DNA of 64,000 nt from Patescibacteria group bacterium (GTDB lineage: Bacteria; Patescibacteriota; JAQUNI01), in contig JAQUNI010000003.1 of assembly GCA_028717685.1 (NCBI GenBank), forward strand, positions 64,311-128,310, in the 5' to 3' direction. The notes beneath the pieces were generated by a model. That model worked only from the letters and a program-made list of their open reading frames with translations, was not told the origin of the DNA and did no database searches. Made by a program: the position numbers and the translations under genes. Positions 5,201-63,059 of this stretch are shown here, piece after piece. Each line of letters begins with the position of its first letter. The stretch's first letter is position 1.

Positions 5201-5209
5201 TTGGATATT

Positions 5210-7765
5210 TTAAGAAATTGTCTTTAAAAACCGCTGACGCCTTGAATTTAATTTGAAATAGATTGCAAAGATGATCAGTAAGAATAATGTAAGCAGACTA
5301 ATCCCTAAACAAATATAGATAATATTTTGTTTCTTGAATTCAATAATTAATTCTATATCCAGGGAACCATTCTCGTTTAATTGAACAAATTCCGGGAATG
5401 AATTTTGAAGATAATCAAGATCTAAATACCAAGCGTTCGCATAACCGTTGACTTGGAAGTGATATTTTTCATCCAGAGCTCGCAAGGATATTGATTCCAA
5501 AAGTTTGCCAGAAGGGATATTATTGTCCTGTGTTGCATTTTGAAAGGTTGGCGATATATACTCGTTGTTTTTATTATTTTCAGTAAATCTGGTTGGATAT
5601 ATTTTCCAGAATTTATGGAATTGGTTGGAAAATATAAGGGGGAAAGATTTAGTAATATTTGAAATTCTGATTTTATATTTATAGGGGAATATTTCTTTAT
5701 ATTCAATCAGAGCGTTATTTTCTGAAGTTTTTTCTAAATTTTGTTGAATAAAATCAGGGGCATTCTTAATATATGCAATTCTTTTATCTTTACTTTCTTC
5801 AATGTCTGCTTTTTGAGGAGGGGTATAGACTATACGGTTCGGAATATAAAAGATTGGTAAAAAATTTTCATCTTTAACTTGGTAAAGAGTGATTGCATAT
5901 TTCCCCTTAAGATCATTTATTTCTTTATATATTTCATACGGCGATCTCACATCATTGGGCAGGGAGTTGACATATTTTGGAGTGAAGAGAAAATAATCTT
6001 TTTCTTTGATAAAATTTTCGCTATTCAAAATTTTTTCAAAGAAATGATAGTCATAGTATTCGGTTGTGGAATCCTTTTTGCTATAATATTGATTATAGCG
6101 AGAGTCAACATCTCTTAATAGAATGATATTTTTCACATTAAGTATTTTTAGAATTTCCGGTTTCAAAATGGATTCCCCGGTCAAAAGCCCTTCTTTGTAA
6201 GTTGGAGGGTCAATATTTCGGATTGATAATATTGGTTTATTAATTAAAGAATAAGGAGCGGGCCAGCCTTGATTGGAACCCTTTTCCCAGTATTGTTTAG
6301 TCCCATACACATAATATGGCAAAATGAGCGTCCTATTAATTAATGTTTTGTCTTCTAAATCTTTTTTTAGTTCATAATGATAGCTTGGCACTTTTTCATA
6401 AGGGGAAGCCAATGAGCCGTTTAAATGCATTTTATTTAGGTTGTAGGCGGCCATGCTTGGCCAAATTGTATAAAGGAAAGAAAGAATAAAGAGGGAGACA
6501 AAAGTGATTTTAAGGGTTTTGTTTTTAGTTCTCTCAATGAGGAGTTTAAGAGCAAAAGCAAGCAATATTGCATAGATAAAAATAATATTTAAATTTACTT
6601 TATCGGGGCTTCTTAGGATTGTAAAAATGTTAAAATGAACATAAAAATACTTAAATACCGCCCCCAATGGAGAAGTTACGCCGGCCGCGATTGAGAGCAC
6701 AAAAAAGAGATAAACATAATAAAATACCAGCTTAGTGTTTTTTTTAATGAAGAAGATGGGCAGGAAGATGAATACAACCAAGGCGTAGGTTAAAAACAGG
6801 CCCAGAGGAGTATAGAAGTAATAGTGATAAGGATGATAATAGTCATAATATGCGGCTGCTCTGAAAGACCAGTTGCCAAGCAGACGGATTGCCTCATAAT
6901 ACTCCATTGCCGATGTATCAAAGGTTCGCAGTAATCCACCTTGGATGTTTGTTAAAGTTCCCAGGAATAATTCAATGTCATTATAAAGCCAATAAAGGTT
7001 TAATAAAATTGTTAAGAAGATTATTCCAACAATCGTTAAATGCAAGGGAATTAATTTATGATATGCCTTCTTTTTGATTATTTTAATTAAGGTATAAAGG
7101 TAATAAAATACAAAAGCGAATAGATAAATATTCGCATAGGAAATGTGGCTAACGCCATTGATTGCTAAAGATAATAAAATACTTATCATCCCTATGAAAA
7201 AAATTTGCTGTTTTATACTAACTTTTTTCAAGGTTTGCCTAAGAGCAAGGATGTAAAAGGCAAATGTAAAGGGGAAGAAAGACAAAATGGGAGAATAAAT
7301 CGGACTGAAAAAAATTATAAGGTGAAAGGGATTATAAACGTAAAATAAAGAGCCCAATATAGAATATACTATATTTAATTTGAATATCTTTCTCAAGAAA
7401 TAATACATCCCAGCAAGAGGAAGATAATACTGAAATATAAAAAGCATTGACAGATTAGCAACCACATCAGAGTTAAAGATTTTGTACAGAAGGAATTGCG
7501 AAAGGTACCAAATTAAGGAAGAAAGAAATGATGTTTCGCCTAAACAATCATGATTCCAGGTAAATTTATGTTTTTGGAAATAATAGTTCCCGAATACTAA
7601 GAGAGAGGTGTCGTCACCAAGGCCGACTGCATATTTTTTTACAAAAATTATAAAAATAGCAAACGGTATTAAAAATAATAAGAGAAAGATGGCAAGGCGT
7701 TTTAATAATTTATGCTTTCCGAAAAAAATATAAATTTTTTTCAGGTTGCTAATGAAATTTTTCAT
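5210..7765 (-). CDS. GT-C-fold-like membrane glycosyltransferase (putative)
   Basis: 851 aa; multi-TM N-terminal half with GLGDD acidic motif right after TM1 (GT-C hallmark position), large extracytoplasmic domain, C-terminal TM. Confidence 0.5.
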   Translation of the reverse strand: MKNFISNLKKIYIFFGKHKLLKRLAIFLLLFLIPFAIFIIFVKKYAVGLGDDTSLLVFGNYYFQKHKFTWNHDCLGETSFLSSLIWYLSQFLLYKIFNSDVVANLSMLFIFQYYLPLAGMYYFLRKIFKLNIVYSILGSLFYVYNPFHLIIFFSPIYSPILSFFPFTFAFYILALRQTLKKVSIKQQIFFIGMISILLSLAINGVSHISYANIYLFAFVFYYLYTLIKIIKKKAYHKLIPLHLTIVGIIFLTILLNLYWLYNDIELFLGTLTNIQGGLLRTFDTSAMEYYEAIRLLGNWSFRAAAYYDYYHPYHYYFYTPLGLFLTYALVVFIFLPIFFIKKNTKLVFYYVYLFFVLSIAAGVTSPLGAVFKYFYVHFNIFTILRSPDKVNLNIIFIYAILLAFALKLLIERTKNKTLKITFVSLFILSFLYTIWPSMAAYNLNKMHLNGSLASPYEKVPSYHYELKKDLEDKTLINRTLILPYYVYGTKQYWEKGSNQGWPAPYSLINKPILSIRNIDPPTYKEGLLTGESILKPEILKILNVKNIILLRDVDSRYNQYYSKKDSTTEYYDYHFFEKILNSENFIKEKDYFLFTPKYVNSLPNDVRSPYEIYKEINDLKGKYAITLYQVKDENFLPIFYIPNRIVYTPPQKADIEESKDKRIAYIKNAPDFIQQNLEKTSENNALIEYKEIFPYKYKIRISNITKSFPLIFSNQFHKFWKIYPTRFTENNKNNEYISPTFQNATQDNNIPSGKLLESISLRALDEKYHFQVNGYANAWYLDLDYLQNSFPEFVQLNENGSLDIELIIEFKKQNIIYICLGISLLTLFLLIIFAIYFKLNSRRQRFLKTIS

Positions 7766-7992
7766 ATTAATCTTTAATCACTGGTAGTTTATAGCGGCGC
7801 AAATAAAACCCTTCAGTAAGATAGCGTCAAACATTCTCGCAAAATGAAGCCTCATTGTTCGCTAAGAAGTATTTACTTTTACTATTTAGAACTGTATACT
7901 CTTTATTTGATTTTGTGAGTATGCTCAAAATTTTTTTATAGTTCAAGTATCAGTTTTTAATTCTTAAAAGCGTCTCATTTTATATTCATTCA

Positions 7993-9012
7993 TTATTTAA
8001 ATTTAGGCACCCCGATCATTAGAAAAGTTTTTAATTTGCCAGAATTCCAATTCATAATAGATAGAATTTTTAAATCACCCACTTTTCTTCTCCTTTGGAT
8101 TATTTTTCTTTGTTTAATAGTATCTTGAATATTAATAATATTCCAAAAAATTGCTCTCCAAACAATTATAAACATTTTAAAATTACCGGAAACAAAGTAA
8201 AATAGCGATTCTAAAATATCTTGGCTTATGGATAAGGGAATAATCCAAAACAGGTTTATTAGTCTATAGTTTTTTAACAAATTTCTTAAATTATTTTTAT
8301 TGACTTCATATCTTCGAAAGGTAGGAATAATATGACGTTTATTTTTTTTATATCTTGTCCTTTCTGACGAACCGCCGCCGAAATGAAATAAATGAGCATT
8401 ATGACAAATCGCTAATCTCATGCCAAATAAGTGGGCTCTCCAAGATAGGTCTGTATCCTCGCTATACATATAATATTTTTCATCGAAGCCACCTAGTTTG
8501 ATAAATTTTTTTTTGTCAATCATTAAGGCGCAGCCATCAATGTAAAACAGTTTTCGATAAGGCACACTAATTGGATAACCCAGAAAATCCATCCCCGGGT
8601 ATTGCTTCTTTGATAAATCAATTTTATTTTTACCTGAAGCTTGCGGTCCAATTAAATCAAAATCGTTTTTATTTTTAAAATCAATGAGCTTTTCGAGCAG
8701 ATCACTAGGGGATCGGGTATCGTTATTTAAAAGAAACAAGATGTCTCCCTTGCTATTTTTAACCCCGATATTATTAGCGGTTCCAAAACCTAAGTCTTTA
8801 TCATTCTGGATCACGGTCATATCTTTATAATTCTTTTTTATAAAATCTATGCTGTCATCATCGGAAGCATTATCCACCAGAATAATTTCAAAATTTTTAT
8901 ATGTCTGAGCGTATAAGGAATCCAAACAATTTTTAAGCCATTTTTTCCCGTTGTGGTTAGTTAAAATTATTGAGACTAATTGATTCATCTTATTGTTTTT
9001 TAAGGCAGCCAT
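7993..9012 (-). CDS. GT2 glycosyltransferase (rhamnosyltransferase/WbbL-like)
   Basis: SIILTNHNGKKWLKNCLDSL...ILVDNASDD...GFGTANN motifs. Confidence 0.75.
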   Translation of the reverse strand: MAALKNNKMNQLVSIILTNHNGKKWLKNCLDSLYAQTYKNFEIILVDNASDDDSIDFIKKNYKDMTVIQNDKDLGFGTANNIGVKNSKGDILFLLNNDTRSPSDLLEKLIDFKNKNDFDLIGPQASGKNKIDLSKKQYPGMDFLGYPISVPYRKLFYIDGCALMIDKKKFIKLGGFDEKYYMYSEDTDLSWRAHLFGMRLAICHNAHLFHFGGGSSERTRYKKNKRHIIPTFRRYEVNKNNLRNLLKNYRLINLFWIIPLSISQDILESLFYFVSGNFKMFIIVWRAIFWNIINIQDTIKQRKIIQRRRKVGDLKILSIMNWNSGKLKTFLMIGVPKFK

Positions 9013-16546: not shown

Positions 16547-17200
16547 TTAAGACAAAAGCATTTTTTTTCTAAACACAATCATTTGTCCTTTTGGCATAAT
16601 GCCAAAATAGCCCTTATTCCATTTATAATTTACTAATTCAAAATTATGCTTTTTACAAATATTGATAAGTGTTTTTTTAGTCAAGAATCTAATATGGGGA
16701 TTATTCGGATAAAAGAATTTATCCCAAAAAAATGTAGCAATGATAATTTTTTTCAATAAATTAAAATCTGTGGTTGTAATACAAAAGAAACCATTCTTTT
16801 TTAACACCCTATTAATTTCCGATAGACATCTATCAATATCTAATAAGTGCTCAATTACTTCTACAGCGAAAACAGTATCAAAAGAATTATCTTGAAAGCT
16901 TAAACTTTCAAGATCTTCTTGTTTAAAGATTAAATTTTTATATTTATTTTTTCCGATTTCTAATGCTTTTTTTGATAATTCAGAGGCAACAGCCTTTTTT
17001 ATAATTGTGGTTTTTGAATTTAAAAAGTTTAAAAATGTACCATCGCCAGCGCCTACATCTAAAACGGTTTTACCAATGTAGTTTTTAAAAAATTCTAAAT
17101 GCCATAGAAGATTTTCCTCCGTCCATTGAGGGGGTAAATATAACATACCCCCGTTTATATTTTTATTCCAATATTTATCATAATAATTTTTATCTTTCAT
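16547..17200 (-). CDS. class I SAM-dependent methyltransferase
   Basis: VLDVGAGDGTF motif I. Confidence 0.7.
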   Translation of the reverse strand: MKDKNYYDKYWNKNINGGMLYLPPQWTEENLLWHLEFFKNYIGKTVLDVGAGDGTFLNFLNSKTTIIKKAVASELSKKALEIGKNKYKNLIFKQEDLESLSFQDNSFDTVFAVEVIEHLLDIDRCLSEINRVLKKNGFFCITTTDFNLLKKIIIATFFWDKFFYPNNPHIRFLTKKTLINICKKHNFELVNYKWNKGYFGIMPKGQMIVFRKKMLLS

Positions 17201-17203
17201 AAT

Positions 17204-18340
17204 TTAATAATATTTGATAATGGAATTTATATTTTTTTCTGAAAAATTTGTCTCAGCATATCTTCTGCAATTTTGAGATAATCTCAAATATAATTCTTTA
17301 TTGATGTACAATTTTTCTATCGCGGCTTTAATATTTTCAACAGTTGGATCTAGTAATAGTGAAACACTCTTATCCAATGCCTCCGGGATTCCGCCTCTAT
17401 TTGATCCAACAACTGGTAGTCCGCAGGCCACGGCTTCAATTATTGATCTACCAAATCCCTCCTCATATTGTGAAGGAGCGCAAAAAAGATCTGCTATATT
17501 ATAATATTTGTACATTATTTTGTTTTCGACGGACCCAATAAATTTCAAATTACTTAATTCTCTTTCTTGCTCTTTTAAAAATTTTTCCTCCGGACCATTA
17601 CCAACAAAAACAAAATTAATTTGAGGCAATCTTTTTGCCACTTTAACCAAGACTTTTACCCCCTTTTTTTCTAGCAGTCTTCCTGCAAAAAGAACCGTAA
17701 ATTTATCCGCAATATTTAGTTTGTTCCTCAACAAAGTTTTATTTAGAGGTTTGAAAATATTGAGGGCAATCCAATGTTTAAATAAGTCCAATTTTGCTTT
17801 GTGTAGACCAAAAGAGATTAATTCATTATATGATCCTTTGGATAAACATAGAACTTTATCAGTTTTATTTAATATGTAGACAATTCTTTTCGCTGTTTTT
17901 GAATCTTTGTCCAATTCATAGATAGCATGGATGCTAACAATTAATTTTTTATGGAATAATTTTTTTAAAATTCCTCCTATTAAAGCGGCGTTGAGGCCGT
18001 GGGCATGGATTACATCTATTCTATTTTTATTAGTTAAGATCCAAATAAATACTCTGCAGAATAAATATGGTGTTAAATATAAAAAGTCAAGAAGGGGAAA
18101 CTTTTCTACTTTATGAAAAAAGTTTTTGCCAGACCATCTATATCTTTTTATATAGATATTTTTACCTTTCTTTTCGCGAGTTGATGCCTTTATTGAGCTG
18201 GTTAGGGGTGAGTAAGTTTGGACAAAGATATAATAGCCCAAATCATCTAATTTTTTCACCAAATCATCTAGATGTGTTTCTACGCCGCCTACGTTTGGGC
18301 TAAAGAAAGGAGTTAAAATTAATACTTTTTTATTTTTCAT
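17204..18340 (-). CDS. GT4 glycosyltransferase
   Basis: LILTPFFSPNVGGVETHLDDL; paralog of 10992..12182. Confidence 0.75.
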   Translation of the reverse strand: MKNKKVLILTPFFSPNVGGVETHLDDLVKKLDDLGYYIFVQTYSPLTSSIKASTREKKGKNIYIKRYRWSGKNFFHKVEKFPLLDFLYLTPYLFCRVFIWILTNKNRIDVIHAHGLNAALIGGILKKLFHKKLIVSIHAIYELDKDSKTAKRIVYILNKTDKVLCLSKGSYNELISFGLHKAKLDLFKHWIALNIFKPLNKTLLRNKLNIADKFTVLFAGRLLEKKGVKVLVKVAKRLPQINFVFVGNGPEEKFLKEQERELSNLKFIGSVENKIMYKYYNIADLFCAPSQYEEGFGRSIIEAVACGLPVVGSNRGGIPEALDKSVSLLLDPTVENIKAAIEKLYINKELYLRLSQNCRRYAETNFSEKNINSIIKYY

Positions 18341-18378
18341 AATTTAAAAAATTTTACTCAAAATTTTGCAAATGGCGA

Positions 18379-19818
18379 TTAAGACATTGCTGATTTCGTT
18401 CCCCCTTGAGTTATTGCTTGAAAGGCGGCCTTTAGGAGTCTTGCATCTTCACGAAGAAAATCGAAGTTGCTCAAATCCCACCAGATTCTTCTTAAAATCC
18501 ATTCGGGGTTGAGGTAAAATCTGCGGTAAGCTTGCTTTTTGGCTTTTACTAAATCTTCTAGTGTCAGGTCGCGGGGAATATACTTGGGCCAAATTGATTT
18601 GAACTCATCCCCCAATTCCCCTCTGATGTACCGATCAATTAAATTAATATTGATTTTTCCCTCTTCAACGCCAGTTTTGTACAAATCCGCTCCAGGCATA
18701 ATAACAGTTATATGTATACCCATGACATCCACCTTAGAAATTAGACCAAAATTGACTGTGTCTTTAATTTCTTTCTTAGTTTCTCCAGGAAAACCTAGCA
18801 TCAGAAAAATGTTGCTTTGAATGCCGTACTTTCTGCACCATCTAATCGCGTTAAAGATATCTCGATTGTTAACATTTTTGTGGATGACTTCATTACGGAT
18901 TCTTTCATTGCCAGACTCAACACCGAAGAGTAGGTTATTGCAGCCAGCTTTTGCCATTAATTTAATCAATTCTTCGTTAACACTATTTGCCCTAGTCATT
19001 GCGCCCCACGTAGCGTTTAATCCCTTTTTGATTAATAATTGGCAAAAATTTTTAATATTTTCTCGATTTAAACTAAAAGTGTCATCATGGAAATGGAATT
19101 TTCCATTATATTGATTATATATAGTTTCCATTTCCTTAATGATGTTCTCTGCCGATCGAAAACGATAGTTTGTTTTATGGACAGGCCGACTGCAAAAACA
19201 GCAATGAAAAGGACAGCCACGTGAGCCAATCATTGAGGCTCTTTTATAAATTGCCGCGGCATCGTTTGTCAATTTGGTTTCAACTCCTCTGTGATAATTA
19301 GAAACATCGGTCAAATGTCGGGCGGGAAATGGTAAATCGTCAAGATTTTGTATTGGTTCTGCATAAAATACTCCTTTCACACGCTTGCCAGCTAATACTT
19401 TCTGAACAATTTTCAACATAGTGAGCTCTCCTTCACCAATAACATAAAAATCAAAAATCGGGAATCGCCGGGCGAAATCCGGATCTGCACTGATGTGGGG
19501 ACCACCTAAACCAACCATGGGACCATGGTTCCCCCACTCCTTCTTCATCTCCGAGGCTAACCGATAAGCAGAACGAATACTGGGTGATAAAGCGGATAAG
19601 CCAACGACTTTAGGATTTTCCTTCTCGATTTCTTGCATTAGTTTTTTTAGAGTTAATCCTTGCACTGTGACGTCGTACAACTTAACCGAAATATTATGTT
19701 TCTCTAAATAAGCAGCAATATAAAGGAGTCCTAAAGGAGGATCGCTGACTTCATCGCCCATCGGCTCATTTTTTCTGCTAAAAGTTATAGGACAATTAAT
19801 TAATAAAACTTGCGTCAT
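18379..19818 (-). CDS. cobalamin-binding-domain radical SAM enzyme (class B type)
   Basis: N-terminal Rossmann-like B12-binding region followed by GCPFHCCFCS (CX3CX2C). Confidence 0.8.
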   Translation of the reverse strand: MTQVLLINCPITFSRKNEPMGDEVSDPPLGLLYIAAYLEKHNISVKLYDVTVQGLTLKKLMQEIEKENPKVVGLSALSPSIRSAYRLASEMKKEWGNHGPMVGLGGPHISADPDFARRFPIFDFYVIGEGELTMLKIVQKVLAGKRVKGVFYAEPIQNLDDLPFPARHLTDVSNYHRGVETKLTNDAAAIYKRASMIGSRGCPFHCCFCSRPVHKTNYRFRSAENIIKEMETIYNQYNGKFHFHDDTFSLNRENIKNFCQLLIKKGLNATWGAMTRANSVNEELIKLMAKAGCNNLLFGVESGNERIRNEVIHKNVNNRDIFNAIRWCRKYGIQSNIFLMLGFPGETKKEIKDTVNFGLISKVDVMGIHITVIMPGADLYKTGVEEGKININLIDRYIRGELGDEFKSIWPKYIPRDLTLEDLVKAKKQAYRRFYLNPEWILRRIWWDLSNFDFLREDARLLKAAFQAITQGGTKSAMS

Positions 19819-19840
19819 AAAATGAATTCAGAAAAATATT

Positions 19841-20407
19841 TTATGTTTTTTGTTTGCAGGCATAGATTGCGCGTTTTTTGATTGAATAGTATTTTAGGAA
19901 GAGAACAAGGGCAGCGCTTGTGGTCGGAATGAAAATGAGGTCGCTTACTAAATTATTGCGCAAGAAAGGCAGGCCCATAAAGTAGCATTGGATTAACCCT
20001 AGCAAAGTATGGGGATACATATCCCAGAGCAACCAAACCCCAAAGTTAGTATAAAGATAGAAGAATAAAGAAGCTGCTATTCCCATCCCCGTCAGGCTTA
20101 AAATAAACTTATAACTGTATCCCCTCTTTTTGCGCACGAGCCAGCCGAAAAAACCAATCATTGCCCAGGCTGACCAAGTGAAGATTAAGATTAGATCGTT
20201 GCCAATATACATATCAGTTAAAGCGATAATGGTGAGCGGAACGATGACGGTATATGCGCCTCCCAAGAGAGAACCAGCCAGAAGACTGGCTACCATTACG
20301 GTTTCCACATTCGGGATATCTTTGAGAATAATCCGACCTATAGCGCCAAAAGCAATAAGGAAAATAGCGATTATGAGCTTAATTTTTGAAATTCGTTTGG
20401 CAAGCAT
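19841..20407 (-). CDS. 6-TM small membrane protein, ECF-transporter S-component-like (candidate vitamin/B12 capture)
   Basis: 188 aa, six hydrophobic helices; context only. Confidence 0.35.
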   Translation of the reverse strand: MLAKRISKIKLIIAIFLIAFGAIGRIILKDIPNVETVMVASLLAGSLLGGAYTVIVPLTIIALTDMYIGNDLILIFTWSAWAMIGFFGWLVRKKRGYSYKFILSLTGMGIAASLFFYLYTNFGVWLLWDMYPHTLLGLIQCYFMGLPFLRNNLVSDLIFIPTTSAALVLFLKYYSIKKRAIYACKQKT

Positions 20408-20428
20408 AAGTTTAGTTTGGAGAAGAAT

Positions 20429-20884
20429 TTAGAAAGAACTCTCTTCAAATCTAAATTCTATTTTGTCATCAGGCGATACTTTTTGTTCCGTAACGCCTAC
20501 AGGCGCCATTTGCCCATTCACATAATAGAGCCAATATTTATTGTCCTGACCATTTTTGATTCCATCAATGGCTTCAATCAACGTCCCCAAATCGTATTGT
20601 TTAGTTTCTAAATTGATTTCATTTTGATTAGCTAATTTTTCCAAAAGATTATAGACCGTTTCCTCAGGCAGAAATTCTAAAGTAAAATTTTTTACTTGAT
20701 CATTACCGAAATTAATAGAAATGGTTGCTTCTTTTTTGGAAATATCAGAGGGGGAGGTTCGGAGATTTTGGGCAGCATCTTGTTCAGCTGGTTTTTGGTT
20801 AAGATTAGTTTGGCTTCCACAGCCGCCGAGCAGCAAAAGGGAGATTATGAACAAAGCAGAAAGAGTAATATTTTTTCTTTGCAT
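20429..20884 (-). CDS. lipoprotein with DUF4430 / transcobalamin-beta-domain-like C-terminus
   Basis: lipobox LLLGGC; C-terminal KYWLYYVNG...DDKIEFRF motif. Confidence 0.5.
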   Translation of the reverse strand: MQRKNITLSALFIISLLLLGGCGSQTNLNQKPAEQDAAQNLRTSPSDISKKEATISINFGNDQVKNFTLEFLPEETVYNLLEKLANQNEINLETKQYDLGTLIEAIDGIKNGQDNKYWLYYVNGQMAPVGVTEQKVSPDDKIEFRFEESSF

Positions 20885-20930
20885 AAATTTAACATTAATT
20901 ATGGCATTATAACTTAGATTTGGTTAGAGA

Positions 20931-21734
20931 TCAAATAAAGGCATTATCTAAAGCCTGGGGACAAGGACAGGCGCGACGTTTTGGTATTTTTTCAATCATC
21001 TTTAAAATTAATTTTTTTACTTTCTGATTATTCTTTTGAAAAACTCTTAATACCTCCGCCGTAGTTACCGGTTTTATATCTTGATAGCCCTCCAATCCTG
21101 TATCATAATCCGTAATTAAGGCTATATTAACATAGCACATAGCCAGTTCTCGAGCTAAAACTATCTCTGGATAGACAGTCATATTGACCACTTGCCAGCC
21201 TTGGGTTTGAAACCATTTACTTTCTGCCCGCGTAGAGAAACGAGGACCTTGGATGACCACAATTGTCGCTTCCTCGTGATGAGAAATTTTTAATTCGGCG
21301 CAGGTTGTTATGGCTAATTTTCTTAAAACTGGACAATAGGGATCGGCCATTCCGATGTGGGCGACGCGGGGACCATTAAAAAAAGTATCCGCTCGATCTC
21401 GCGTGCGATCCACAAACTGGTCGCAAATAACAAAATCACCGGGTTGAATCTTGGGGGTAAGACTGCCTGAAGCGCAAGGCGCAATAATTTGTTTGACCCC
21501 TATTTTTTTAAATGCCCAAAGATTCGCCTGATAAGGAATTTTATGCGGCGGGAGTTCGTGCTTTTCGCCGTGGCGGGGTAAAAACGCAATACTCTTTCCT
21601 TTATATTTTCCAATCGTAAGAGGACCAGAAGGTTTACCAAAAGGAGTATCTATTTTTATTTTTTTCGCTTGGGAGATTAAAGAATAGAAACCAGAACCGC
21701 CAAAGACGCCAATTTCTGCTTTAAAAAGGGGCAT
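20931..21734 (-). CDS. mtnP: S-methyl-5'-thioadenosine (and 5'-deoxyadenosine) phosphorylase, MTAP family
   Basis: IGVFGGSGFY...TPFGKPSGPL...IIAPCASGSL MTAP signature. Confidence 0.85.
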   Translation of the reverse strand: MPLFKAEIGVFGGSGFYSLISQAKKIKIDTPFGKPSGPLTIGKYKGKSIAFLPRHGEKHELPPHKIPYQANLWAFKKIGVKQIIAPCASGSLTPKIQPGDFVICDQFVDRTRDRADTFFNGPRVAHIGMADPYCPVLRKLAITTCAELKISHHEEATIVVIQGPRFSTRAESKWFQTQGWQVVNMTVYPEIVLARELAMCYVNIALITDYDTGLEGYQDIKPVTTAEVLRVFQKNNQKVKKLILKMIEKIPKRRACPCPQALDNAFI

Positions 21735-21739
21735 AGTAG

Positions 21740-22258
21740 TTAGGTATTTAATTTTAGAAGCACATGTTTTTTATATCCTCTAATTTTTCGCTTGCCATCA
21801 AGATAGATGAGTTCAGCTAAAAGGGCAATGCCTATAATTTTACCTTGCATCTTTTTGACCAGTTTTATTGTCGCCGCGAGCGTGCCGCCAGTGGCAAGGA
21901 CATCATCCACGATCAAAACCCTTTCCCCTTCCTTAATTGTATCGGTATGCATCTCTAGAATATTTTTTCCATATTCTAAATCATAAGTCTGTTGAATGAC
22001 TTGGCGGGGCAGTTTACCCTTTTTGCGCACAATGGAAATACCCGCGTTTAGTTTATAGGCGACTCCGGCGGCGAGCAAAAAGCCACGCGCATCAATCCCC
22101 ACCACTTTTTGAATTTTTTTCTTTCGGAAAGGTTGGACAAGTTTATCGATAGTATAATGATAAGCCCGCGCGTTTTCTAAAAGAGGAGTAATGTCTTTAA
22201 AACTAATCCCCTTTTTAGGAAAGTCAGGAATGGCGCGAATAAATTTTTTTAAATCCAT
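21740..22258 (-). CDS. apt: adenine phosphoribosyltransferase
   Basis: VLIVDDVLATGGTLAATIKL PRPP-binding motif, 172 aa. Confidence 0.85.
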   Translation of the reverse strand: MDLKKFIRAIPDFPKKGISFKDITPLLENARAYHYTIDKLVQPFRKKKIQKVVGIDARGFLLAAGVAYKLNAGISIVRKKGKLPRQVIQQTYDLEYGKNILEMHTDTIKEGERVLIVDDVLATGGTLAATIKLVKKMQGKIIGIALLAELIYLDGKRKIRGYKKHVLLKLNT

Positions 22259-22300
22259 ATTTATATTGGACTAAACAGAATTAAAATTTTTGCAAAATGG

Positions 22301-23233
22301 TTATTTTTTGGCAATTACCTTTATCATTGGCCAAAATAATCTGCTGTTGTTTGCTATTTTAATGAAAGCATTTTTTAGTAATCTGGAGGAAATAAAATCA
22401 AAAGTTAATTTGACATTAAATTTACCTATAAGAACATCTTTAAACCCTGCTTGCTTGTGCATTTTTTTTAGGGTTGACCCTAAGAAAGAAAGTTCATAAC
22501 CAAAGATCATATATTTTCCTTGTAATACCTTGATATGAATAAATTCCGCTATTTGTTTTAAAATTGGAAAATAAGGAATGTTGCCCCAAATTTGACGATA
22601 TGTTAAGGAACCAAGATTTAAACAGGGAACCGCATTGAAAGAAATACCATCTTTTTTTAAGACACGATATAATTCATTAATACATTGCTGAGTATTTTTG
22701 AAATGTTCAATAACCCCTCCACCGTAGATCAAATCAACGCGATTTGTTTTAATCGGCAGGTGAGCAACATCTCCTTGAATAAATAAGTAATTTTTAATGC
22801 CGTGAGCTTGTAGAATTTTTTTAGCAACTTTAAGCGCGCTAAGGCTAAAATCTAGACCAATAACCAAATTTACCTTTTTGGCTAATACTTCCCCTGTATA
22901 GAAATAACCACTGCCGATTTCTAGAAATGTTAGATCCTTATTAATCTTTTTAACCTCAGTTATTTGGGGATATGTATTAGGCAAATTTTGTTTTTTAAAT
23001 GTTCTATAAAGTTTCAGATAAGTTTTATTTTTAAAATTATTTTGATATGATTTTTCCCACTTAGATCGGGATAATTCCGCATCGGGAGGGAGGGGGGGCA
23101 TAATACAGAAGATGTCATTATCAATTATTTTATACTTTCTGCCACAACTCTTACAAATCAGAAATTCTTTTTTTCTCTCTAAATCAGATTTACATTTATA
23201 ACAACAAATATAATCTAATGGTTGGGTAGGCAT
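22301..23233 (-). CDS. class I SAM methyltransferase with N-terminal Trm112-like zinc ribbon
   Basis: CCYKCKSDL...CKSCGRKY then LEIGSGYFYTGE motif I. Confidence 0.7.
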   Translation of the reverse strand: MPTQPLDYICCYKCKSDLERKKEFLICKSCGRKYKIIDNDIFCIMPPLPPDAELSRSKWEKSYQNNFKNKTYLKLYRTFKKQNLPNTYPQITEVKKINKDLTFLEIGSGYFYTGEVLAKKVNLVIGLDFSLSALKVAKKILQAHGIKNYLFIQGDVAHLPIKTNRVDLIYGGGVIEHFKNTQQCINELYRVLKKDGISFNAVPCLNLGSLTYRQIWGNIPYFPILKQIAEFIHIKVLQGKYMIFGYELSFLGSTLKKMHKQAGFKDVLIGKFNVKLTFDFISSRLLKNAFIKIANNSRLFWPMIKVIAKK

Positions 23234-23256
23234 AAGGTTTAGATGAGAACTTTAGT

Positions 23257-23370
23257 AAACCCCGTTAGAGAATTTCGTTCTCTAACCCCGTCTAGAAATT
23301 TATTTCTAACGGGGTCAGCATCCATATTTTTCCTACCACCGATTTCGTCAGCGGCTTTCTCTAACGGGGT
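23257..23370. repeat. cluster of palindromic elements (half-site CCCCGTTAGAAA / TTTCTAACGGGG)
   Basis: gttagagaa/ttctctaac and ccccgtctagaaat/atttctaacgggg hairpins plus a third ttctctaacgggg; related copies at 24454-24482, 41393-41481, 48324-48349, 58490-58533. Confidence 0.7.
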
Positions 23371-23423
23371 AAATTATTTCTTTAGTATTTTTTGATTACT
23401 TCTACTTTATCCAGCTTTTCCAT

Positions 23424-24437
23424 TTATATCTGCCAACTCTTCCTTGATTGAATTTTGGTTTTAAAAATTATAGATTTGATCTTAATCCCGCCATAAATAA
23501 AGCAGGATAAAAAACAGGCTAGAGGATGAAAAAACCAAGCAGAGTCTTGTTTTTTCCAATACCCTTTTAAGCTTTGAAAAAGGGTGGGAAAGAAAGTCAG
23601 AGAATAAAGGACAAATTTAACTAATTTCCCTCGTGGAAAATTTTTCCACTGATAAGTTCTTAAGCCCTTTGTTTGATAGTAAAGATAATCCTTGATTCTT
23701 CTTTTTTGTTTTTGGATAAAACTTCCTATGTTACCGGCAAATATATGGATAATGCCTATTTTAACTTTAGCATAAGTGGAATATCCTTTTTGAGTGAGGC
23801 ACCAAATTATATCAATATCAAAAAAGTAGTCTTTAAATGGAACTTTTTCTAAATACTTTTTCCTAATTAAGAACCCATTAGCTCCTATAGTAGGAATTTG
23901 GGGTGGTATTAGTTTAAATTTTAGGTAATTTCCCCTGTCTTCACTTACAACAGGAAAACCGGTCCATTTTTCAGAAAGGAGGTTTTCGCGGTCATAATTG
24001 CCTAAAAAATAACAAAGGGGGTCATTCATTCCCATTAAAGCGGAATATCGGGTTATCATACCATCTTTTTTGCGATATGTGTAGCGGATAGGCTCCGTCC
24101 CTATTATTTCCGGATCAGAAAAAGGGGCAACCATTCTTTTTAGCCAATCACAAGAAGGTAAAATATTGTCGGAGTCAATTAAAGCAATAATATTATTTTG
24201 CGCTTGTTTTACTCCTATGGCTTTTCCGGCCTCCCCGGTTTTTAGAGGATTTTTGAGAATTTTATTAGTGTATTGATAGGCAATTTTTAAGGTATTATCT
24301 TGGGAACCAGCATCAATAATAATAATTTCTATCCGATCTCGGGGATAATCTTGCCTAATTATTGAGTGCAAGCATTGAGAGAGAGTTTTTGTGGAATTAT
24401 AAGTAGGAATAATAACAGAGATAGAAGGAAGATTCAT
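23424..24437 (-). CDS. GT2 glycosyltransferase
   Basis: SVIIPTYNSTKTL...IIIDAGSQDNT. Confidence 0.75.
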   Translation of the reverse strand: MNLPSISVIIPTYNSTKTLSQCLHSIIRQDYPRDRIEIIIIDAGSQDNTLKIAYQYTNKILKNPLKTGEAGKAIGVKQAQNNIIALIDSDNILPSCDWLKRMVAPFSDPEIIGTEPIRYTYRKKDGMITRYSALMGMNDPLCYFLGNYDRENLLSEKWTGFPVVSEDRGNYLKFKLIPPQIPTIGANGFLIRKKYLEKVPFKDYFFDIDIIWCLTQKGYSTYAKVKIGIIHIFAGNIGSFIQKQKRRIKDYLYYQTKGLRTYQWKNFPRGKLVKFVLYSLTFFPTLFQSLKGYWKKQDSAWFFHPLACFLSCFIYGGIKIKSIIFKTKIQSRKSWQI

Positions 24438-24453
24438 AACTTTTTTATTTTTG

Positions 24454-24482
24454 CCCCGTTTAGAAATAAATTTTTAACGGGG
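24454..24482. repeat. palindromic element copy (ccccgtttagaaat aaa tttttaacgggg) between DUF457 stop and GT2 start
   Basis: 13-bp arms; begins with TAAACCCCG overlapping the upstream stop codon. Confidence 0.7.
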
Positions 24483-24483
24483 T

Positions 24484-24906
24484 TTATTCTCCTTCACTAA
24501 ATACTCTAAATTTTTTATATATGCGGTAAATTAAGAAGTAAGAAAAAGTTTTGAGTTCATTGCCAATATCATCAAGAATAAGATGCAGGGTGAACGCGCA
24601 GGCAAGAGCGACTAAAATGGCTCGCTCATGGAATTGCCAGGTGATGAGCCAAAGCAGAATGACAATTTCGTACGAATGTAATGGCACCAGGACTTTTGAA
24701 TTTCGGCGCATATAGTTTTCCGGATGCAAAAATTCTTTGATGTTGCAAGGATTGCGGGGTCTGCTTTTCCAGAAGTCCAAAAGATGATCAAGGTCAAGAA
24801 TAACGCCAGTGAAAAGAAGTGCAATCGCGCCAGTTAAAGAGCGGGTAAAATAGTAGAAGGTGAAGGCTAGGAGGGTTGAGGAAAGAACATGTATTTTTAT
24901 TCGCAT
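24484..24906 (-). CDS. membrane-bound metal-dependent hydrolase, YdjM/DUF457-like
   Basis: ILDLDH, PLHSYE, LHLILDD motifs spaced as in the YdjM family; 3 TM. Confidence 0.45.
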   Translation of the reverse strand: MRIKIHVLSSTLLAFTFYYFTRSLTGAIALLFTGVILDLDHLLDFWKSRPRNPCNIKEFLHPENYMRRNSKVLVPLHSYEIVILLWLITWQFHERAILVALACAFTLHLILDDIGNELKTFSYFLIYRIYKKFRVFSEGE

Positions 24907-24911
24907 ATTTT

Positions 24912-26390
24912 TTAATAATTTTGTTCAAAGTCGGCAAGATGGGAGAACACAGCTTTAGCCCCGCGGGCAAGATATTTCAAATCATTGAGGTCGCGCAGCG
25001 AGACAATCTGGCGCAGGATAAATTCAGGATGGAAAGCGACTTTATAGGTGTCCTGGACAAATTTTTGCAATTGCGCGGAGGAAAAAGAGGTTTGCATTAT
25101 TGCCTCGCGCATATCATAACGGTTCCAGTCTTCAGAAGTGAGCCATTTTTTTTGCTGGCATTCACGAAACAAAGGGGTACCCGGGTAAGGGATGACAATA
25201 GTGGCTTGGAGTGTTTTAGCATAGCCTTTGCGCAGGAGATATTTTCCCAAGCGCACAGTTTGCCGCGCTTCTTCTTCGGTCTCCCACGGATAACCAAACA
25301 TAATTGTTACATGGGGAGACAATCCTGTTTTACGCGCCAGCTTGCAGGATGAGATGATCTTCTCTACCGTCATATTTTTACTTATCTTGTTTAACGTTTT
25401 CTCGCTGGCTGATTCTAAACCAAAAAGCAAAAAGCGGAAATTTGCCTTACGCATTAACCCATATTCTTTTTTGTTAAGGGCCCCGAAGCGCATATTGCAA
25501 TCCAAAATCACTTTTTTATTATAGCCGCGTTCAATCATCCCGCGGCAGAATTCTTGCAGCCATTCCCCTATCGGGAAAGTGCCTGTATCATCCATTATTT
25601 CCTTAATTTGATATTTTTTAATTAATTCTCCAATTTCATCCAAGACATTCTCTGGGGTGCGGGTGTGGTATTTTGGATAAAGCGTGGTCCAAGAACAAAA
25701 AGTGCACTCGTGATGCCAACAATCGCGGCCAGCCATAATATAAGTTCCTGGTGTGCGGGAGAAATTGCCTACATCGTAGGCATAATTTTGCCATTCTGTT
25801 AGTTCGCGGTCAATGAAGGGCAGGGTATTGAGATTATGGTTGAGCGCAAATTTTCCCGTATTTTTAATCTCTTCATTATCGCGGTAATAAATTCCTGGCT
25901 CTAGATTTTGGGGGACAGGTTCTAGATTGGGTTTTAGATTTTGAAGGAAGTTTAAAAGCAGAAAATCGTAATCGCCGCCAGTTAAAACAAAGTCCACTTT
26001 GGAGTTCTGGAATGATTCTTCAGGCAACGCCGTGACATGGTCGCCGACAAGAATCGTTTTTAATGCAGGGATTTCTTTTTTTAACGCATTGGTGATTTTC
26101 CAGTGCCTTTTTACGGTTGGAGTTTTCGTTTCCATTACCACAATGTTTGGTTGAATTTTTTTCACAAATTCCAACCATTCCGCGTATCTCATTTCTTCGG
26201 CAATGCCGTCTTTCCAAATCACCTTAAAACCATTTTTTTGAAGTAAAGTGGCAGCTTGCGCCGGCACCACTGGATAAATGGGGCAATGGCGGCGAAACCA
26301 TTGGAATTGGCGGTTCTGGGATAATAGAGGATAACCTTTTTTAGATGGCAGAGGTGGATAAGTAATTAAAGTTTTCAAGTGTTCTGACAT
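24912..26390 (-). CDS. cobalamin-binding-domain-like radical SAM enzyme, second copy, with CX4CX2C spacing
   Basis: N-terminal Rossmann-like region; GRDCWHHECTFCSW; 492 aa. Confidence 0.7.
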   Translation of the reverse strand: MSEHLKTLITYPPLPSKKGYPLLSQNRQFQWFRRHCPIYPVVPAQAATLLQKNGFKVIWKDGIAEEMRYAEWLEFVKKIQPNIVVMETKTPTVKRHWKITNALKKEIPALKTILVGDHVTALPEESFQNSKVDFVLTGGDYDFLLLNFLQNLKPNLEPVPQNLEPGIYYRDNEEIKNTGKFALNHNLNTLPFIDRELTEWQNYAYDVGNFSRTPGTYIMAGRDCWHHECTFCSWTTLYPKYHTRTPENVLDEIGELIKKYQIKEIMDDTGTFPIGEWLQEFCRGMIERGYNKKVILDCNMRFGALNKKEYGLMRKANFRFLLFGLESASEKTLNKISKNMTVEKIISSCKLARKTGLSPHVTIMFGYPWETEEEARQTVRLGKYLLRKGYAKTLQATIVIPYPGTPLFRECQQKKWLTSEDWNRYDMREAIMQTSFSSAQLQKFVQDTYKVAFHPEFILRQIVSLRDLNDLKYLARGAKAVFSHLADFEQNY

Positions 26391-26393
26391 TTT

Positions 26394-27434
26394 TTACATT
26401 CTTAATTTGCTTTTTAGGGTTTTTGTAAATAACAGACCTTGGAGGAATTTTACGCCGTAGACTAAATGGGTTAAGAATATATAAGGAATGACCAATAAGC
26501 CGACTAAAGGATTTTTTTCTCGGAAAGCAGACTCAATCGCCGCCCAGAGCATTATGCCAAGATATAGCAGTAAGATGATAATATCACCATATAGGAAATG
26601 AATATAACCATCCTTTTTTGCTAAGTAGCCTATTAGCGGGTTCGCGACTAATAATAGCACAAAAAGACTGGGAATAAAGTAAGCAAATTTCAAGGAGGTT
26701 GCGGGGAATTTTTTGGCAAAGAAACCGCGATGCAAGCCATAACCCGCAATTTGTCGCAGGTGGCTTAAGAGAGTTTTGCGGCGATGATGGTAAACAATGA
26801 GCTTAGGGTCATAAATTATATTACCGCCTGTCTGAGTTAGATCCAGACAGAATTTTGTGTCTTCTCCGGGCCAATATTGGGAGTTAAAACCCCCTATTTT
26901 TTGGAATATGTGTTTGCGCACTAAAAAATTTACCGAAGGCCAGTCGGTCACGGTTTTCCTTTTTTTACCTGGAATATAACGGTCCGCAATTCCTCCCCAG
27001 AAAGAGGAGGCAAGACATGCGCCGGAGGTTTTTTGGTGCAAGGAATCGTCTTGGGGGGTAATGGCAGGACCGCCTAGGGCGGCAATCCTGGGGTCTTGAA
27101 AATTTTTTTCCGCTTGCGACAGCCAGTCATTTTGTGGATAAGCGTCATCATCCAGAAAAGCGAGAATCTCTCCTTCCGCGTATTGAAGCGCTAGCGTTCT
27201 TTTCTCTGCGGGACCGATTTTCCCTGTGGGGATAATTTTCGTTTTGGGGAATGCTTCTTCTGACTTTGTGTCAGGAAAAATTAGAATTTCAAAATTTTGA
27301 TGGGTAAGGTTTAAAAGGTGGCGAACTGTTTCGTGGATATAATCATTGATTCTGACTACTGGGATGATGATAGAAAATTGAGGCATCCTTGAAAGTATAA
27401 AATTAAAAATGAAAAATGTAAAATGACAGATCAA
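26394..27434 (-). CDS. GT2 glycosyltransferase fused to C-terminal TM helices (true start probably MPQFS at ~27386)
   Basis: FSIIIPVV...ILIFPD, DDDAYP motif, three C-terminal TM segments. Confidence 0.7.
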   Translation of the reverse strand: MICHFTFFIFNFILSRMPQFSIIIPVVRINDYIHETVRHLLNLTHQNFEILIFPDTKSEEAFPKTKIIPTGKIGPAEKRTLALQYAEGEILAFLDDDAYPQNDWLSQAEKNFQDPRIAALGGPAITPQDDSLHQKTSGACLASSFWGGIADRYIPGKKRKTVTDWPSVNFLVRKHIFQKIGGFNSQYWPGEDTKFCLDLTQTGGNIIYDPKLIVYHHRRKTLLSHLRQIAGYGLHRGFFAKKFPATSLKFAYFIPSLFVLLLVANPLIGYLAKKDGYIHFLYGDIIILLLYLGIMLWAAIESAFREKNPLVGLLVIPYIFLTHLVYGVKFLQGLLFTKTLKSKLRM

Positions 27435-27478
27435 AATTTAAAATTTTACATACTAATTTTGCATTTCCATTTTACTTT

Positions 27479-28432
27479 TTAATCGCGTTTAGTTTTTAGC
27501 TTTTCAAAATATATAATCGTTTTTTTTAAGCCATCTTCTAAATTTACCTTTGGCGTCCATCCTAATTTTGTGCGCGCTAGAGTGATATCTGGCTTTCTTT
27601 TTACGGGGTCGTCTTCGGGGAGAGGATAGAATTTGATTTTAGAGTGAGAGCCGGTGAGTTCTATCACTTTTCTGGCTAAATCATCAATTTTGGTTTCCAG
27701 GGGATTTCCCAGATTAAAAGGTCCAATTTCTTTACTCTTCATCATCTTGATTAAACCAATGACTATATCATCAACATAGCTGAAAGAGCGGGTTTGCTTC
27801 CCTTTGCCATAAACGGTAATAGGTTTATTATCTAGAGCCTGGTTGATAAAGTTAGGAATCACGCGGCCATCATTATCGCGCATACCCGGACCGTAAGTGT
27901 TAAAAATTCGGACAATTTTCGCGTTGAGTCTGTATTTTCGGACATAACTCATAATCAGACTTTCGGCAAAACGTTTACCCTCATCATAACAAGAGCGGGG
28001 ACCTAAGGTATTAACATAGCCGCGGTAGCTTTCTTTCTGGGGATGTACTTGAGGATCACCATAAACTTCAGAGGTGGAGGCTTGTAAAAAGATGGCTTGA
28101 TGTTCCATTGCTAAATCTAAAAGACGGTTCACTCCCTCGGAGCAGGCTTTTAAAATCTTAGTAGGATAACGCGGAAAATCCACGGGAGAAGCGGGACAGG
28201 CTAGGTTATAAATTTCGTCAATTTTATCCGGCAAAGGAGGGATGTTCTCCGTAATATCGTGATCCATAAAGACAAAGTTAGGGTCAGAAAACCACTCCTT
28301 GATATTGTCGTAAGATCCGGTAATAAGGTTATCAATGCACAGGATTTTATTCTTTTCCTGAAGCAGATAGCGAATCAGATTAGAGCCGATAAATCCCGCC
28401 CCGCCGGTGACTAAGATAGTTTTTTTGTCCAT
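27479..28432 (-). CDS. uxs: UDP-glucuronate decarboxylase (UDP-xylose synthase)-like SDR
   Basis: TILVTGGAGFIGSNL...YDEGKR...FNTYGPGM near-consensus UXS. Confidence 0.8.
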   Translation of the reverse strand: MDKKTILVTGGAGFIGSNLIRYLLQEKNKILCIDNLITGSYDNIKEWFSDPNFVFMDHDITENIPPLPDKIDEIYNLACPASPVDFPRYPTKILKACSEGVNRLLDLAMEHQAIFLQASTSEVYGDPQVHPQKESYRGYVNTLGPRSCYDEGKRFAESLIMSYVRKYRLNAKIVRIFNTYGPGMRDNDGRVIPNFINQALDNKPITVYGKGKQTRSFSYVDDIVIGLIKMMKSKEIGPFNLGNPLETKIDDLARKVIELTGSHSKIKFYPLPEDDPVKRKPDITLARTKLGWTPKVNLEDGLKKTIIYFEKLKTKRD

Positions 28433-58884: not shown

Positions 58885-58890
58885 AAAATG

Positions 58891-58981
58891 GTAATTAGTA
58901 ATCCGTAATCAGTAATTGGTAATTGTGAACAATCAGATGATAGTCGGTAAAAATTAATAGTTACTAATTACTGATTACTAC
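58891..58981. repeat. GTAATCAG-heptamer hyphenated inverted repeat, second copy
   Basis: gtaattagtaatccgtaatcagtaattggtaatt ... aattaatagttactaattactgattactac. Confidence 0.65.
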
Positions 58982-58982
58982 A

Positions 58983-62735: not shown

Positions 62736-62739
62736 AAGT

Positions 62740-63058: not shown

Positions 63059-63059
63059 A

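Follow-up and report, generated by a model that had tools for sequence, protein, structure and literature searches.

To our knowledge, vitamin transporters of the energy-coupling factor (ECF) type are, by definition, devoid of an extracytoplasmic substrate-binding protein. In Lactobacillus delbrueckii, the gene for the S component CbrT lies in an nrdJ-cbrS-cbrT-pduO cluster, and transport of cobalamin and cobinamide by CbrT together with an ECF module was shown experimentally (PMC5997447). The solitary vitamin B12 transporter and decyanase BtuM of Thiobacillus denitrificans (6FFV, 8C7P) works without an ECF module, which is missing in BtuM hosts; BtuM is mainly found in Proteobacteria, is co-localized with BtuB and contains an invariant cysteine (Cys80 in BtuM_Td) as axial cobalt ligand (PMC6072759). 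In eukaryotes, corrinoids are bound by transcobalamin (TC), intrinsic factor (IF) and haptocorrin (HC). The TCN proteins carry DUF4430 as their C-terminal domain (PMC4350170). The isolated TC beta-domain keeps cobalamin and co-crystallizes with cyanocobalamin (CNCbl) and cobinamide, while the alpha domain contributes the other half of the binding site and is responsible for the sub-picomolar affinity (PMC5599065). Secreted TC-beta-like and TC-alpha-like proteins are also encoded in the ECF-like operon lsa1836-1840 of Lactobacillus sakei, for which heme uptake was proposed from a deletion mutant and docking (bioRxiv 10.1101/864751). Here we describe a pair of genes, encoding a DUF4430 lipoprotein and a DUF6580 membrane protein, in a 64-kb window (the whole stretch of DNA analyzed, to which all coordinates without a locus handle refer) of a metagenome-assembled genome (MAG) of Patescibacteria, also referred to as candidate phyla radiation (CPR). 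The pair is very probably a unit for the scavenging and import of corrinoids (vitamin B12) and the Patescibacteria counterpart of cbrS-cbrT of Lactobacillales.

Both open reading frames (ORFs) of the pair, which had been noted in an initial annotation made from the sequence alone, were confirmed; they lie on the minus strand, 21 bp apart, and encode 151 and 188 aa. Database records identical to the two proteins are labeled 'MAG: hypothetical protein PHW01_04585 [Patescibacteria group bacterium]' and 'DUF4430 domain-containing protein'. The 151-aa protein starts with MQRKNITLSALFIISLLLLGGC and ends with ...NKYWLYYVNGQMAPVGVTEQKVSPDDKIEFRFEESSF. Its match to DUF4430 (PF14478; 63 bits versus a curated cutoff of 23.8) covers residues 75 to 147 and profile positions 2 to 71 of 72. 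Because this score is above the cutoff, the resemblance of the C-terminal motif to DUF4430 and transcobalamin, from which the initial annotation had started, is a true family match and not due to chance. The sequence LLLGGC, which follows a hydrophobic stretch and ends with Cys22, fits the PROSITE-type lipobox [LIVMFWSTAG]2-[LIVMFYSTAGCQ]-[AGS]-C, so that the lipoprotein signal noticed at the outset was confirmed as well.

An AlphaFold model (AF2) of the DUF4430 protein, built from 12 homologues, shows the domain block (residues ~50 to 150) with a predicted local distance difference test score (pLDDT) of ~94 to 98. The top 19 Foldseek matches in the PDB were TC, IF, HC and the bacterial DUF4430 structure 3u7z (E-values of 6e-7 to 1e-5), whereas ubiquitin-like folds appeared at E-values above 1e-2 only (Pfam ubiquitin, E 0.1). 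Superposition on the isolated human TC beta-domain (5no0) resulted in a TM-score of 0.81 with a root-mean-square deviation (rmsd) of 2.0 Å. At the sequence level, a mixed profile of DUF4430 proteins from CPR and Firmicutes matched the HC beta-domain (4kki, residues 323 to 431; E 4e-5) and 3u7z (E 2.5e-4), and the C-terminal motif YW..(V)NG...G(D/E).(I/V)EF is aligned in both matches. No TC or HC match was obtained by sequence with a narrow profile restricted to CPR, and single-sequence searches of the PDB with either protein of the pair gave nothing useful. The window protein shares with the eukaryotic carriers the fold of the beta-domain, the Pfam domain DUF4430 and a significant profile similarity to HC; it differs from them in being membrane-tethered instead of a soluble carrier and in lacking the alpha/alpha-toroid (alpha) domain, since it consists of a signal peptide, a linker and one beta-domain only. 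An assignment as a full transcobalamin-like protein was rejected for the latter reason. We propose that the DUF4430 protein captures corrinoids while being anchored on the outer side of the membrane.

The 188-aa protein gave no NCBIfam match and no direct sequence match in the PDB. A relative (P0019) carries the NCBI label 'DUF6580 family putative transport protein', and nothing was found on DUF6580 in the literature. The family comprises 4,315 representatives of 50%-identity clusters at E ≤ 1e-3 in public data. The AlphaFold model (AF2; pLDDT 86, predicted template modeling score 0.79) contains six long membrane helices, the last one being kinked. All plausible Foldseek matches in the PDB were ECF S components, namely PanT, RibU, FolT, ThiT and BtuM (Foldseek probabilities of 0.77 to 1.00) as well as CbiM, and a match to an unrelated family was not seen. 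The highest TM-score was reached with BtuM in complex with cyanocobalamin (8c7p; 0.61/0.64, rmsd 4.3 Å).

A direct match of the 188-aa protein to a named ECF S-component family was not obtained; the link was made via fold and profile comparison. The DUF6580 profile aligned to chain A of PDB entry 6fnp with a non-significant E-value of 2.3, sharing the motif D(I/L)PN(V/I)(Q/E)x(V/I)T. This chain is taken to be CbrT, based on its length of 182 aa and on the statement in the respective paper that 6FNP is ECF-CbrT, and the segment belongs to PF12822, not to DUF6580. When 20 DUF6580 proteins were aligned to 15 proteins of the CbrT family with hhalign, the families aligned over full length with a probability of 97.4% (E 1.5e-11, 171 columns). 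The motif R..PN(V/I)(E/Q)x(V/I)T is common to DUF6580 and CbrT, and PF12822 and PF20221 (DUF6580) occur together in some CbrT homologues as well as in some DUF6580 members. Because of this homology and of the members with both Pfam models, DUF6580 is regarded as a branch that has diverged within the CbrT-type S components. This agrees with the S-component-like, six-helix layout described initially, and the protein is proposed to be the corrinoid-translocating subunit of the pair. The BtuM family was considered as well and rejected, since the invariant cysteine ligand is absent from DUF6580: no Cys is invariant in the alignment of 20 sequences, C141, the only frequent one, being Cys in 14 and Ser in 6 of them.

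A profile scan over one genome per GTDB species yielded 80 loci, almost all from Patescibacteria lineages and one from a DPANN archaeon; adjacency of the pair was evaluated for the 77 loci with a callable DUF6580 ORF. In 47 of these, DUF4430 is encoded immediately upstream of DUF6580 on the same strand, typically with a spacing of -77 to +30 bp. The N-terminus is hydrophobic in each of the 47 adjacent DUF4430 proteins; it contains a lipobox in 11 and only a transmembrane or signal anchor in the other 36 proteins; therefore, tethering and not lipidation is the conserved feature. Within 8 kb of DUF6580, the adenosylcobalamin-dependent ribonucleotide reductase (RNR) NrdJ is encoded in 51 of the 80 loci, the corrinoid adenosyltransferase BtuR/CobO in 36 and a B12-radical-SAM (S-adenosylmethionine) enzyme in three, with a chance expectation of about 2% for a single-copy gene to be located within 16 kb in a genome of ~1 Mb. 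The commonest extended gene order is NrdJ>BtuR>DUF4430>DUF6580. Among the upstream neighbors other than DUF4430 (24 were scanned), NrdJ was found in 14 loci and BtuR/CobO in two. TIGR02504 ranks second in all 14 NrdJ neighbors, with 576 bits (cutoff 400) in the one member shown in detail.

A natural fusion was found in the 50%-cluster library. P0382 (335 aa) is composed of DUF6580 (residues 8 to 176), an extra hydrophobic helix ending in the lipobox-like sequence SFSGC, and DUF4430 (278 to 333). With this topology, the DUF4430 domain would face the cell exterior. DUF6580 precedes DUF4430 in the fusion, opposite to the order of the genes in the typical pair, and the protein is a single instance, for which an assembly or annotation artefact is possible; it supports a functional coupling of DUF6580 and DUF4430.

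The archaeal locus (L056, Candidatus Iainarchaeum archaeon, JAGHAM010000003.1) contains a DUF4430>DUF6580 pair at ~7500-8567 with NrdJ encoded three genes upstream. The pair is thus common to ultra-small bacteria and archaea, which could be due to lateral transfer or to a common ecological need. Many other loci are titled 'uncultured Gammaproteobacteria', 'Pirellulales', 'Bdellovibrionales' or 'Pseudomonadales' (e.g. L008, L011, L023, L029, L032 and L035); where they contain the CPR-typical arrangement NrdJ-BtuR-DUF4430-DUF6580, the titles are probably taxonomic mislabels of MAGs.

Riboswitch control is a classic mark of B12 transport genes. Rfam scans of 43 of the loci at the gathering threshold detected cobalamin-class riboswitches (RF00174, RF01482 or RF01689) in ten, all of which carry the DUF4430-DUF6580 pair (10 of 32 scanned pair loci), while none of the nine scanned loci with the order NrdJ>DUF6580 contained a B12 riboswitch. 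Eight of the ten riboswitches precede the operon in coding-strand orientation, seven of these ~65 to 240 nt before the DUF4430 start. In six of the seven, the riboswitch follows a BtuR-sized gene and precedes DUF4430, and therefore acts on the pair and not on NrdJ/BtuR. The corrinoid uptake unit put forward in the initial annotation gains support from these riboswitches as well as from the NrdJ and BtuR/CobO neighbors.

In a locus of Candidatus Falkowbacteria (L025, JABMQE010000139.1, 3244-6820), an adenosylcobalamin (AdoCbl) riboswitch (RF01482, 3244-3392), the eighth of the upstream ones, precedes the gene of a 610-aa protein, in which an alpha/alpha-toroid (Prenyltrans/SQHop_cyclase, residues 111 to 207) is combined with DUF4430 (320 to 390) and Ig-like domains. 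Its architecture is the complete, transcobalamin-like combination of alpha and beta domains, here in a CPR bacterium. The operon continues with an Ig-like protein, a second, short DUF4430 protein and DUF6580. In two further loci, the riboswitch is found directly downstream of DUF6580 and before the next ORF (RF01689 in L066, 3758-5517; RF00174 in L084, 3810-5962). The ORFs following it, encoding 552 aa without Pfam match in L066 and 652 aa in L084, may be further members of the B12 regulon. A riboswitch of another class was observed on a CPR-type contig (L047, 11854-11968, minus strand), where a thiamine pyrophosphate (TPP) riboswitch precedes a classical solute-binding protein of the ATP-binding cassette (ABC) type (SBP_bac_8/6/1). 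Thiamine uptake appears to proceed via a conventional ABC importer in this case and not via an ECF S component. As a pointer to ECF-type vitamin uptake in CPR, this riboswitch was discarded as uninformative, since it controls a classical solute-binding protein.

The same genomic logic is already known for the homologous, named counterparts cbrS and cbrT in Lactobacillales. In L. helveticus, a CbrT homologue with 65% sequence identity (PF12822) is encoded in the order class II RNR > DUF4430 (136 aa) > CbrT homologue > PduO-type adenosyltransferase. From this synteny, we infer that CbrS is a DUF4430 protein; a single mention of cbrS was found in the literature. In Pontibacillus, the same pair of DUF4430 and S component is present, and the latter also matches DUF6580 weakly. 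The Patescibacteria pair resembles the Lactobacillales system (ECF-CbrT of L. delbrueckii, PDB 6FNP) in that a small exported DUF4430 protein is encoded upstream of a ~180-aa, six-helix protein of the S-component type, and in that NrdJ and a corrinoid adenosyltransferase are encoded beside the pair in most Patescibacteria relatives, as in Lactobacillus. It differs from this system in the Pfam family of the membrane protein (DUF6580 instead of PF12822), in the AxxxA-type motif of CbrT, which is not conserved, and in the adenosyltransferase, which is of the BtuR/CobO-type in the Patescibacteria relatives and of the PduO-type in Lactobacillus. Furthermore, the pair of the window is located beside B12-radical-SAM genes in a glycan cluster. 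With BtuM, the DUF6580 protein shares the S-component fold, a similar size, B12 as proposed substrate and the lack of an ECF module detected nearby; differences are the missing counterpart of Cys80, the lack of significant sequence similarity and the DUF4430 partner, which BtuM does not have. The L. sakei operon likewise encodes an S component together with an exported TC-beta-like protein, and the locus of Candidatus Falkowbacteria also has a TC-alpha-like toroid, there fused to DUF4430. Unlike the window, however, the L. sakei operon contains its own fused EcfAA' and EcfT genes and a gene for a separate alpha-like protein.

In the window, every ORF called across 149-33430 is encoded on the minus strand, and this stretch reads as a large gene cluster for glycan and cell-envelope biosynthesis, judged by eye and by Pfam scans covering part of it. 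The features of the pair and its surroundings are compiled in Table 1. The gaps between the MTAP-like gene, DUF4430, DUF6580 and the B12-binding radical SAM gene amount to 46, 21 and 22 bp, respectively, and no terminator-like site was found between the pair and the radical SAM gene. The best NCBIfam matches of this radical SAM enzyme are the B12-dependent families PhpK, HpnJ and BchE, all far below the equivalog cutoffs; it is a probable consumer of the imported cofactor. The pair had initially been described as wedged between B12-radical-SAM genes. This holds for the downstream side, whereas the second radical SAM gene is separated from the pair by five genes, scores 158 bits against the HpnJ model (cutoff 578) and has a B12-binding domain below the Pfam cutoff.

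Table 1. Features of the DUF4430-DUF6580 gene pair and of its surroundings in the 64-kb window.
Feature	Position	Strand	Evidence and remarks
B12-binding radical SAM enzyme, class B type, 479 aa	18379..19818	-	PF02310 70.8 bits and PF04055 97.3 bits; 22 bp downstream of the DUF6580 gene
DUF6580 membrane protein, 188 aa, six-helix ECF S-component-type	19841..20407	-	PF20221 105 bits, cutoff 27
DUF4430 (CbrS-like) protein, 151 aa	20429..20884	-	PF14478 63 bits
Transcobalamin beta-domain-like fold of the DUF4430 protein	residues ~50-151, ~20432-20737	-	AlphaFold model and Foldseek
Low-confidence linker of the DUF4430 protein, probably disordered	residues 20-44	-	AlphaFold model
Signal peptide of the DUF4430 protein with lipobox, Cys22	~20819-20884	-	Sequence pattern
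Best sigma-70-like promoter match of the region, TTGATC-17-TATAAT	20906..20934	-	10/12 consensus positions
MTAP-like purine nucleoside phosphorylase	20931-21734	-	PF01048 149 bits; directly upstream of the pair
Adenine phosphoribosyltransferase-like protein	21740-22258	-	PF00156 72 bits
Second radical SAM enzyme (HpnJ-like), 492 aa	24912..26390	-	PF04055 66 bits; 4 kb upstream of the pair, five genes between

The promoter match extends over the MTAP-like stop codon (20931-20933) and the intergenic gap in front of DUF4430. This site may represent an own promoter of the DUF4430-DUF6580-radical SAM genes but is suggestive only, as the total of sigma-70-like sites in the region equals the expectation from shuffled sequences. 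The genes for the MTAP-like and the adenine phosphoribosyltransferase-like protein are genomic context outside the uptake unit. The same set also accompanies the pair in a relative with 72% identity (L004), and the two proteins may contribute to disposal or salvage of 5'-deoxyadenosine or methylthioadenosine (MTA) from radical SAM chemistry. Genes for cob/cbi functions were not found in the 64-kb window, from which it is suggested that the organism may be unable to make B12. In the ~4 kb of additional sequence beyond the window that was accessible via contigs encoding its terminal genes, UDP-glucose dehydrogenase and MurJ are encoded and no NrdJ, BtuR or ECF genes were detected.

A role of the pair in corrinoid import is supported by the family and fold assignments, the homology to CbrT, the conservation of the pair, its links to B12 by neighborhood and riboswitches, and the natural fusion. 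The DUF4430 protein would be exported and tethered on the outer face of the cytoplasmic membrane, in the window by lipidation at Cys22, and a flexible linker of ~25 residues would hold out the ~100-residue fold resembling the beta-domain of transcobalamin and intrinsic factor. The domain would bind cobalamin or cobinamide from the surroundings, concentrate it at the membrane and hand it to the CbrT-homologous DUF6580 protein, which is assumed to carry it across the membrane in the inward direction. In the organism studied here, the class B (B12-dependent) radical SAM enzyme(s) of the glycan and cell-envelope cluster, presumably transcribed together with the pair, could then consume the cofactor; the tight operon suggests that the pair specifically feeds these enzymes. 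In most relatives, the cofactor would serve NrdJ after adenosylation by BtuR.

Several observations weigh against this role of the pair. The Foldseek E-values of the membrane protein are weak (at least 0.1), and PF12822 was not matched in a single-sequence Pfam scan of the 188-aa protein. In the first transmembrane helix of CbrT, A/G/S16 and A20 are conserved, while the residues vary at the corresponding positions 15 (I/V/A...) and 19 (A/V/I/F/L/T) of DUF6580; the latter has A14, G21 and G24 instead, and this result on the small-xxx-small motif depends on the exact alignment register. A cobalamin riboswitch was not detected in the window at gathering score, nor at E ≤ 5 in 17000-28000. The match of the second radical SAM enzyme to the B12-binding domain PF02310 (24 bits) remains under the Pfam cutoff of 32.1. 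NrdJ and BtuR or another adenosyltransferase are absent from the 64-kb window. Class B radical SAM enzymes cycle between cob(I)alamin and methylcobalamin and would not need an adenosyltransferase, which fits the absence of BtuR. An ABC ATPase (Walker A and signature motifs) or an EcfT-like ORF was not found in the 64-kb window, where the unassigned membrane ORF proved to be DUF5656, and an ECF module was co-localized with DUF6580 in none of the 80 loci. Finally, solitary CbrT did not transport B12 in Escherichia coli (PMC5997447).

The substrate of the pair could also be heme or another non-corrin tetrapyrrole. The L. sakei operon, the only experimentally studied one with a TC-beta-like partner, was assigned to heme uptake (bioRxiv 10.1101/864751), and neither corrinoid binding by any bacterial DUF4430 protein nor other binding data for these proteins were found in the literature searched. 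This points away from corrinoids, but the partners in the relatives are B12-specific (NrdJ in 51 and the corrinoid adenosyltransferase in 36 of 80 loci), cobalamin or AdoCbl riboswitches directly control the pair in relatives, and the closest characterized homologue, CbrT, transports cobalamin and cobinamide. Since, in addition, the pair of the window has the same orientation as a B12-binding radical SAM gene at a very short distance and no heme-related gene was seen in the neighborhoods, import of heme is considered very improbable. An equally improbable explanation is that the adjacency has no direct functional meaning, with DUF4430 being a generic beta-grasp surface lipoprotein and DUF6580 transporting, for example, a nucleoside or cobalt alongside NrdJ. 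Beyond the matches to the TC family, the DUF4430 fold does resemble ubiquitin-like beta-grasp domains, nucleotide-metabolism genes such as dCTP deaminase also occur in the neighborhoods, and the substrate specificity of an S component is not readable from its fold alone. However, the ubiquitin-like matches start at E-values above 1e-2 versus 1e-6 for TC, IF and HC, the pair is kept in 47 of 77 loci with overlapping genes or very short spacing and is fused in P0382, a riboswitch separates a BtuR-sized gene from DUF4430 in at least six loci, and DUF4430 is paired with an S component also where the latter is a proven B12 S component, i.e. in Firmicutes.

With corrinoid import as the preferred function, two modes of energization have to be weighed. 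By analogy with CbrT, an EcfAA'T module would be encoded elsewhere in the genome, a possibility for which we see the arguments as evenly balanced. S components of ECF systems with a shared module (group II) are normally encoded apart from the module, so the missing co-localization says little about its absence. In a variant of the preferred function that seems rather unlikely to us, B12 would be imported without an ECF module: DUF6580 would act as a solitary facilitator of the S-component type like BtuM, with net uptake being driven by high-affinity capture by DUF4430 outside and by trapping in B12 enzymes inside. This would agree with the lack of EcfA/EcfT-like genes in the window and beside the pair in the 80 loci, with the EcfT-docking motif of the AxxxA-type, which is conserved in CbrT and not at the aligned positions of DUF6580, and with the very small host genomes. 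BtuM, the best structural match, is itself a solitary transporter, which works without an ECF module in hosts lacking one (PMC6072759). The closer sequence homologue is CbrT, however, which did not work alone and is itself a group II S component, a type normally encoded away from the module, and the invariant cysteine ligand of BtuM is absent.

The placement of DUF6580 among the B12 S components of the CbrT type is new, as are the recognition of CbrS as a DUF4430 protein, i.e. a transcobalamin-beta-like partner conserved across very distant phyla, and the extension of the cbrS-cbrT-type system to Patescibacteria and DPANN. None of the three was found in the searchable literature, in which nothing was found on B12 or ECF transport in CPR either. 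Two widespread families of 'unknown function' are thereby given a probable specific function, with DUF4430 as the bacterial form of the transcobalamin beta-domain, and a probable route of vitamin B12 acquisition becomes visible for Patescibacteria/CPR as well as for at least one DPANN archaeon. These dependent organisms with tiny genomes appear to need B12 for the synthesis of DNA precursors (NrdJ) and, in the organism studied here, for the tailoring of cell-envelope glycans by radical SAM enzymes. If this is true, B12 is one concrete commodity taken from hosts or neighbors. Attention is also drawn to CbrS, which accompanies the proven B12 transporter ECF-CbrT as a conserved accessory protein. 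For a specialist in B12 transport, the results are a logical and useful extension; they would be a surprise if transport were independent of ECF or if CbrS were a true substrate-binding subunit. A broader reading, doubtful as a whole, would combine these points: the CbrT/DUF6580 branch would have a tethered TC-beta-like capture protein (CbrS/DUF4430) from Firmicutes to Patescibacteria and DPANN, would operate free of ECF ATPases and independently of ATP in ultra-small genomes, and would represent the prokaryotic source both of the beta-domain of animal transcobalamin and intrinsic factor and of the alpha+beta architecture found in L025.

Further genes were observed beside the pair in the relatives. 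The gene following DUF6580 encodes a DUF1858 protein in 13 of 75 loci, a dCTP deaminase in eight and an MtrA-like protein with PterinBD-DUF4346 in four; MtrA is a corrinoid-binding subunit in methanogens. A neighbor of ~146 aa (L064, 8557-8997) had no Pfam match. Unusually long NrdJ proteins of ~1,180 aa are encoded beside DUF6580 in a locus labeled Kerfeldbacteria (L010, 4426-7950) and in one labeled Patescibacteria group (L013, 4364-7936). The former carries an intein with a LAGLIDADG homing-endonuclease domain, and the latter (71% identical, 1,190 aa) is presumably a second intein carrier; these domains were seen in two scanned neighbors.

At some distance from the pair, two other parts of the window were noted. 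Three very large ORFs encoding 877, 563 and 851 aa are located at 883-7765 on the minus strand, and two of the encoded proteins cross the membrane several times. They have no Pfam family on record and, being situated inside the glycan cluster, may represent novel glycosyltransferase- or polymerase-like envelope proteins. Near the other end of the window (58627-63876), the large (PF00374) and small (PF01058) subunits of a [NiFe]-hydrogenase, HypA and an EamA-family transporter are encoded, together with a FAD/NAD-binding iron-sulfur-like ORF at 63208-63876. This part looks like a cytoplasmic (group 3-type) hydrogenase locus. It is adjoined by genes for alanine racemase, D-Ala-D-Ala ligase and valyl-tRNA synthetase (ValRS), of which alanine racemase and ValRS were recognized by eye only.

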